This document shows, one piece after another, positions 55,015 through 55,341 of a stretch of 64,000 bases of DNA. The translations under genes and the position numbers were made by a program. Within the stretch, counting starts at the first letter, position 1. Each line of letters opens with the position of its first letter. Source of the DNA: a phage; the sequence record PZ476263.1; one strand, given 5' to 3'. Below the pieces are notes generated by a model. It did no database searches and had not been told where the DNA came from. It saw nothing but the letters and a program-made list of their open reading frames with translations.

Positions 55015-55341
55015 TAATCTAGCTGCCTCGTACAGTAATGTACGATGAGAAATTCTTGTGAATTGCTGGAAAATCCTTAGAGCTTGTAAAACTACAACAT
55101 GACCTGCAAAGGTGAGTGTGAATGTTAAAAATTTACAAGATTGGACGATCAGCCTCCAAGCCTCTTTACGAGAGGAAGGTTCAACGACTAGCCGAAAGGC
55201 GTAGATCATAAGCAAATGATGATCGAAGTGCAAGACCCCTACCTTATTGGTAGGGTGAAGATATAGTCTGATCTGCATGGTAACATGCAGCAGTGCTTGA
55301 GTGCACGGCAACGAACTTGCGATCCGTTGCGAACATAACAG
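55015..55341 (+). mobile_element. group I intron 2 (ORF-less, td-like)
   Basis: Begins taatc… like the td intron; P-like aattgctggaaaa (55061), Q-like atcagcc (~55150), R-like gttcaacgactag (55179), S-like gaagatatagtc (55258), ends …gcgaacataacaG. Confidence 0.55.

Follow-up and report, generated by a model that had tools for sequence, protein, structure and literature searches.

Two group I introns of one family, probably acquired separately, flank an 18-codon Walker B exon in the terminase gene of a Vequintavirinae-like phage

Terminase genes (TerL) interrupted by more than one group I intron have been described in several phages. In the Bastillevirinae, introns are found in the genes for TerL, DNA polymerase and rNDP reductase, and TerL is divided by two or three group I introns; the gene for the large subunit of phiNIT1 rNDP reductase contains a small internal exon, and exon skipping has been reported for SIOphi TerL (PMC11878797). 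Very short exons between tandem introns are also known from Twort orf142, where introns 2 and 3 (subgroup IA2) are separated by 23 nt, and from the Coxiella 23S rRNA gene, where the exon between the introns has 34 nt, and exon skipping was observed in both cases (PMC10136302). The TerL gene of rV5 (Vequintavirus, NC_011041) is annotated as a three-piece join ('ORF64ABC'), its intron at DEG^TQF being ORF-less and the one at TI^FDNP containing an HNH gene (here and below, the caret marks the insertion point). Both of these sites are also occupied in TerL of RudolfGeigy (BASEL Bas52, MZ501102), likewise annotated in three pieces, where both introns are ORF-less and have Rfam scores of 84 and 95.6 bits. 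TerL of CB7 and phiTE (Certrevirus) has a single HNH intron at GVD^EGT, and splicing of the CB7 intron has been demonstrated by RT-PCR and Sanger sequencing (PMC7344957).

We analyzed a stretch of phage DNA of 64,000 nucleotides (PZ476263.1), referred to as the window, in which TerL is likewise split by two group I introns. The two-intron arrangement of TerL is already known in related phages; the window presents it at new sites, QG^LEF for the upstream intron (intron 1) and EQ^LEY for the downstream intron (intron 2), and involves no new mechanism. Our main reading, to which we assign a probability of roughly 85%, is that two group I introns of one family, both self-splicing, were acquired separately by TerL of this Vequintavirinae-like phage.

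All parts of the split gene lie on the plus strand. Exon 1 (53696..54050, 355 nt) is colinear with TerL of Escherichia phage UPEC06 and ends with ...DIQG and the U that begins a Leu codon. It is followed by intron 1 (54051..54960, 910 nt), a group I intron with an HNH/NUMOD4 ORF, and by exon 2 (54961..55014), a micro-exon of 54 nt or 18 codons that encodes (L)EFTFIGVDEGTQFEWEQ(L). Intron 2 (55015..55341, 327 nt) is an ORF-less, IA2-like group I intron, recognized by its match to Rfam family RF00028, by its MFE fold and by the reading frame that its excision restores. Exon 3 (55342..56420) has 1079 nt, including the stop codon. Removal of both introns restores an uninterrupted TerL ORF of 1488 nt, encoding 495 aa with the Pfam domains Terminase_6N and Terminase_6C. 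The spliced product aligns without gaps to the intron-less TerL of UPEC06, with matches at 461 of 496 translated positions (stop included), or 93% amino acid identity, and with a nucleotide identity of 83%. TerL is uninterrupted in the six closest relatives (UPEC06, A5-4, A7_1, A73, W70, and LTH01; about 93% aa identity), and the Walker B segment is also covered by 19 further intron-less homologues.

Exon 2 is the Walker B segment LEFTFIGVDEGTQFEWEQ, or catalytic glutamate segment, of the packaging ATPase, and all 18 of its residues are the same in UPEC06 and in several IMG/VR homologues. An earlier note on this DNA, made from the sequence alone, had placed an intron at 55015-55341, only 54 nt downstream of another one, and had proposed a comparison with intron-less alleles. 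The comparison with the colinear UPEC06 gene fixes both insertion sites and bears out these boundaries exactly: U55014 is the base at position -1, G55341 is the final base of the intron, and the upstream intron ends at 54960, leaving 54 nt for a genuine 18-codon micro-exon. Because this 54-nt exon encodes the Walker B motif, synthesis of a functional TerL needs both splicing events, as the same note had anticipated. We also considered a single large intron or a twintron covering 54051-55341, and rejected it since the intervening 18 codons are those of intron-less homologues, including Walker B. Gene callers fragment this TerL, and the correct product for annotation is join(53696-54050, 54961-55014, 55342-56420).

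Both insertion sites in the window fall in UUR Leu codons and so have the U that position -1 requires, whereas CUN codons are found there in most intron-less homologues. One distant intron-less homologue (51% aa identity) has the exon sequence of the window at the intron 2 site, GAGCAGT^TAGAATA.

The region upstream of TerL (50967-53598) contains six tRNA genes (Rfam matches at 50967-52821), followed by two small ORFs. These ORFs (52913-53302 and 53299-53598) resemble an i-/o-spanin pair in that they overlap and one of them contains an LSGC motif of the lipoprotein type; the spanin-like pair lies directly upstream of TerL. The order of tRNA genes, spanin genes, and TerL is the same in rV5, and its spanin-TerL part is found in RudolfGeigy.

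The RF00028 model matches positions 54986-55290 over its full length (model positions 1-253) with 78.7 bits, compared to a gathering score of 50 (E 2.5e-18). Together with the finding that no plus-strand ORF in intron 2 is longer than 30 aa, this agrees with the previous description of a second, ORF-less group I intron. Among these plus-strand ORFs there is thus no homing endonuclease of its own, and the 30-aa ORF had no match in Pfam and PHROG searches. A 138-aa antisense ORF (54973-55389, minus strand) extends across all of intron 2; this ORF matches nothing in Pfam or PHROG and is likely to be spurious.

According to the sequence and the MFE fold, helix P1 of intron 2 (55010..55026) is formed by the exon bases GCAGU (55010-55014) and the guide GCUGC (55022-55026), with the U55014-G55022 wobble pair at the 5' splice site. 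The P1 guide is adjoined by the P10 guide UCUA (55018..55021), which complements UAGA (55342-55345), the first four bases of exon 3, and the omega G is G55341. The P1 aligned by Rfam lies further upstream in the exon (GGCACUCAG with CUAGCUGCC); we judged it to be forced by the model, as it does not place the splice site at a U-G pair. The R element (J6/7 and the 5' strand of P7, UUCAACGACUAG) at 55180..55191 aligns to the Rfam consensus GUUCAaAGACUA, and the S element (J8/7 and the 3' strand of P7, GAAGAUAUAGUC) at 55257..55268 is identical to positions 54882-54893 of intron 1. The 3' terminal domain (55273..55341), as aligned among 19 phage introns, consists of P9 (55273-55290), P9.1 (55293-55306), P9.2 (55308-55330) with a UUGCGA loop, and the tail GAACAUAACA with the terminal G55341.

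The MFE fold of intron 2 includes P1, P2, P4-P6, P7.1, P7.2, P8, P9, P9.1, and P9.2, with a z value of -3.47 relative to shuffled sequences. Its P4-P5 domain has a long P5 extension, and P6 is a hairpin. Both P7.1 (GCCGAAAGGC) and P7.2 (GAUCAU..AUGAUC) are present in the fold and, like P9.1 and P9.2, are IA2-like features. We take intron 2 to be IA2-like, of the type of the introns of T4 td, nrdB, and nrdD, Twort, and SPO1, an assignment that follows the Michel-Westhof criteria rather than a dedicated classifier.

Intron 1 has shorter helices, with 4 bp in P1 (GGGU at 54047-54050 with GCCC at 54062-54065) and 3 bp in P8; its P3 pairs CGUAUC with GAUACG. P6 (AUCCAU at 54118-54123 with AUGGAU at 54808-54813) encloses the endonuclease ORF (54148-54825), which is located in L6. 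The HNH/NUMOD4 assignment of this ORF comes from PHROG 59 (E 1.3e-30), with Pfam matches below threshold, and a look-up of the exact protein found no record. The S element is located at 54882-54893 and the terminal G at 54960. The Rfam group I match of intron 1 is only partial (54793-54915, 23.6 bits) because of its ORF. After removal of the ORF, the resulting mini-intron folds into P1, P3-P6, P7.1, P7.2, P8, P9, P9.1, and P9.2, so the structure predictions that the earlier note had called for reveal group I helices in both introns.

Each of the two introns combines a complete group I core with P1 and P10 pairings that fit its own site and with a terminal G, and both are predicted to splice in vivo. 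The guide of intron 2 would pair with the last five bases of exon 2 (GCAGU with GCUGC, including the U-G wobble) to form P1, and with the start of exon 3 (UAGA with UCUA) to form P10. Splicing would begin with a guanosine-initiated transesterification and end with an attack at G55341 that joins exon 2 to exon 3, while intron 1 would independently join exon 1 to exon 2. In other phages, some genes are known to be split by HNH insertions that do not splice (PMC7344957), and one could imagine that intron 1 or intron 2 is a decayed remnant of this kind, with TerL either broken or made as separate polypeptides. We regard this as extremely unlikely, given the intact core elements, the high Rfam score, and the exact P1, P10, and terminal G; moreover, TerL is essential, and the 18-codon exon, perfectly conserved, is untranslatable on its own.

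To place the two introns among other phage introns, we gathered the 3' domains of 20 phage introns, each taken as the roughly 80 nt that begin with the S element and end with the terminal G. The sources included TerL (CB7/phiTE and RudolfGeigy), primase/helicase genes (W70, UPEC06, and Asterion), DNA polymerase genes (SSE121 and CB7), nrdD (Meda), and a tape-measure gene (Vibrio phage vB_CoeS_P1). Introns from Aeromonas phage PhAER-4 and from DCP80 were also included; these lie between or beside CDSs that carry no split-gene annotation, in an unannotated gap in the case of DCP80. The family layout consists of GAUAUAGUC, followed by P9, P9.1, and P9.2 with a UAGCGA or UUGCGA loop, and then by GAAYAYAA..G. 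In the alignment of 19 sequences, compensatory changes were found for 15 of the 18 predicted pairs in P9, P9.1, and P9.2, which identifies the 3' domain as a conserved structural module of a family. This module is common to 19 introns, which come from several groups of phages and from five or more named types of gene; the family includes nrdD introns of phiS, which is T4-like, and of Meda, which is Felix-O1-like. Two introns per gene are also found in the primase/helicase gene of W70 and in the DNA polymerase genes of SSE121 and CB7.

Several of the introns encountered in this survey are missing from the public annotations. The primase/helicase region of W70 (OP778610.1, 2807-4532) contains unannotated group I introns at 2807-3089 and 3687-4532, only one of which contains an HNH gene while the other is ORF-less, and UPEC06 has at least the ORF-less intron A in the same gene, also unannotated; the exons of the gene in these two phages are annotated as separate or hypothetical proteins. 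The tape-measure gene of vB_CoeS_P1 (PV206818.1, approximately 1365-2619) has four back-to-back ORF-less group I introns with Rfam scores of 73.7, 70, 50.2, and 63.4 bits. None of the four is annotated, the gene is given as two CDSs, and its internal exons apparently range from a few to a few tens of nucleotides. In PhAER-4 (PQ495741.1, approximately 1387-1976), two adjoining introns of the family (Rfam scores of 45.8 and 90.5 bits) are unannotated and separated by hardly any exon; the CDSs on either side are both named 'hypothetical protein'.

A near-duplicate 3' core in the two window introns, pointing to duplication or transposition of one intron within TerL, had been proposed in the earlier note. 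The observation holds in part: the 12-nt S element (GAAGATATAGTC) is identical and the 3' domains are 69% alike, whereas the rest of the two introns is near or at chance similarity. The likeness is limited to the 3' domain, namely to the S element, P9, P9.1, P9.2, and the terminal GAACAYAA..G. As controls for local alignment scores we used dinucleotide shuffles (n=500). For the 3' alignment beyond the S element, 6 of 500 shuffles reach the observed score, which is only marginally above chance, and the remainder of the alignment is generic to the family. This result is close to the one that the note itself had named as evidence against its proposal, namely the lack of a significant alignment past the generic S element. 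Local alignment of the 5' halves yields no match better than 8 of 8 nt, with a score that is reached by 215 of 500 shuffles, and the P7-P8 middle parts are at chance level (74 of 500).

Comparison within the family leads to the same picture. In the 3' domain, introns 1 and 2 occupy only the 8th and 11th mutual ranks among 19 comparators, a ranking that favours closer relatives, as the comparators were drawn from BLAST matches to both window introns, and that is still sufficient to exclude a recent intragenic duplication. The 3' domain of intron 1 is nearest to that of the CB7/phiTE TerL intron (79%), and the CoeS_tmp1 and Meda nrdD introns also rank above intron 2. The nearest relatives of the intron 2 domain are UPEC06 primase intron A and the DCP80 intron (80%), while Asterion, CB7 pol1, and others are also closer to it than intron 1 is. 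The architectures differ too, intron 2 having P2 and a long P5 extension, and intron 1 having a short P5, no P2, and an ORF in L6. Thus, over the whole ribozyme the two introns are not each other's closest relatives, as duplicates would be.

We therefore consider it very unlikely that intron 2 arose from intron 1 by duplication or ectopic transposition (for example, by reverse splicing) and then lost the HNH ORF. Such an origin would explain the identical S element and the alike P9, P9.1, P9.2, and terminal motifs, but the 69% identity of the 3' domains is below the 79-80% shared with introns of other genes and phages and represents a family trait. The positions of both introns, in phase 1 of a UUR Leu codon before LE[FY] and with flanks GU^UGGAAU and GU^UAGAAU, would also fit a common origin; however, the guides are different (GCCC and UUCC in intron 1, GCUGC and UCUA in intron 2), P2, the P5 extension, and P7.2 differ between the introns, and the 5' halves and P7-P8 match only at chance level. 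A common target preference for GU^U.GAAU was considered as a sign of transposition and rejected, because other members of the family insert at unrelated sequences and the guides differ. On these sequence comparisons, the two introns appear to be cousins within one family. The duplicate reading is not supported and looks largely refuted, with a 3' module that is family-wide and 5' halves that differ in architecture.

Intron 2 itself looks mosaic. In its 5' half, 84 of 105 nt (80%) agree with W70 primase intron B, and the P7-P7.1 segment is identical in the two (21 of 21 nt), while its 3' domain most resembles that of primase introns of type A (76-80%) and has its lowest similarity to intron B (66%). 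This pattern suggests either exchange of modules between introns or very uneven rates of change.

W70 primase intron B, which shares the 5' half and P7-P7.1 with intron 2, has an HNH gene in L6, and the TerL intron at TI^FDNP has an HNH gene in rV5 and none in RudolfGeigy. It is tentatively conceivable, at somewhat less than even odds, that an ancestor of intron 2 carried an HNH gene in L6 which was later lost, a proposal that concerns its origin only and is compatible with the main reading. However, P6 of intron 2 is a tight hairpin with no remnant of an ORF, and ORF-less relatives are equally common (intron A of the W70 and UPEC06 primase genes, introns 1 and 2 of RudolfGeigy); these data would fit a gain of the gene as well as a loss.

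The HNH enzyme encoded by intron 1 would cut intron-less alleles in co-infecting relatives and thereby start homing, during which intron 2 could be co-converted together with intron 1. Because intron 2 has no nuclease of its own and lies only 54 bp from intron 1, we propose that it is probably maintained by hitch-hiking (co-conversion) on the intron 1 HNH enzyme, to judge only from this short distance.

The tandem introns might alternatively serve regulated splicing, in which exon 1 is joined directly to exon 3 to give an in-frame TerL lacking Walker B that would modulate packaging. With two phase 1 introns around an exon of 54 nt, the skipped product would stay in frame (1434 nt, single terminal stop). 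The beginning of exon 3 (UAGAAU) resembles that of exon 2 (UGGAAU), the 3' tails of the two introns are alike, and skipping is documented for the 23-nt exon of Twort orf142 (PMC10136302) and for SIOphi TerL (PMC11878797). Even so, we consider regulated skipping improbable, since the guide of intron 2 pairs poorly with the end of exon 1 and the P3 strands of one intron do not complement those of the other. This lack of complementarity also makes a composite ribozyme, built from the 5' half of intron 1 and the 3' half of intron 2, unlikely. A broader speculation, to which we would give little credence, is that the Walker B stretch acts as a landing pad for retargeted guides of the family at four or more positions, that skipping yields a Walker-B-less TerL which tunes or times packaging, and that the HNH enzyme attacks intron-less TerL of co-infecting relatives.

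We searched for further occurrences of the two window introns. Among TerL relatives with at least 67% aa identity, no allele with one of the two introns was found; all are intron-less except CB7 and phiTE, which have their intron at a different site. A search of the phages collection for the same or a near-identical intron 2 gave only partial matches of 68-80% to other introns. In IMG/VR, the exon/intron junction pattern of intron 2 had 0 matches, and all other hits were partial. A metagenome scan for intron 2 returned 2 matches, both of them chance hits with no other similarity, and genome contigs returned 0.

Across the phages compared, there are at least four insertion sites within the Walker B stretch of Vequintavirinae TerL, defined as the 54-nt exon with its boundaries (QG^L, EQ^L, GVD^E, and DEG^T), and a fifth TerL site, TI^FDNP of rV5 and RudolfGeigy, lies beyond it. 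The window thus adds two new sites to the Walker B cluster, where one intron family has repeatedly colonised the most conserved part of an essential gene. Two natural group I introns that differ in sequence and sit in tandem on either side of a short in-frame exon also make the locus a possible system for tests of exon skipping and of the hitch-hiking of an ORF-less intron on a neighbouring homing endonuclease.

The described systems resemble this locus to different degrees. Twort orf142 and Coxiella 23S rRNA share with it two group I introns that flank a very short exon; however, Twort introns 2 and 3 are highly alike, unlike those of the window, and the host genes differ. The Bastillevirinae also have multiple group I introns in TerL, some of them with HNH ORFs (PMC11878797), but these phages infect Gram-positive hosts, and their TerL family and insertion sites are different. 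The primase/helicase genes of W70 and UPEC06 are similar to TerL of the window in having two introns (in W70), one ORF-less and one with an HNH gene, whereas the host gene is another one, the W70 introns are about 600 nt apart, and they have no intron annotation in GenBank. In CB7 and phiTE, the TerL intron interrupts the same Walker B segment and carries its HNH ORF in the equivalent part of the intron as intron 1. It occupies a third site, falling inside the stretch that forms the micro-exon of the window, and its HNH protein is only 28% identical to that of the window over 97 aligned residues. The closest parallels are rV5 and RudolfGeigy, whose TerL genes, also from the Vequintavirinae, have two group I introns, one of them in the Walker B segment, with the same 3' module of P9, P9.1, P9.2, a UAGCGA or UUGCGA loop, and a GAAYAUAA..G tail. 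As in the window phage, only one of the two TerL introns of rV5 contains an HNH gene. In contrast to the window, the internal exon of rV5 and RudolfGeigy is about 330 nt long rather than 54 nt, the insertion sites are different, and the 3' domains are only 63-76% alike.
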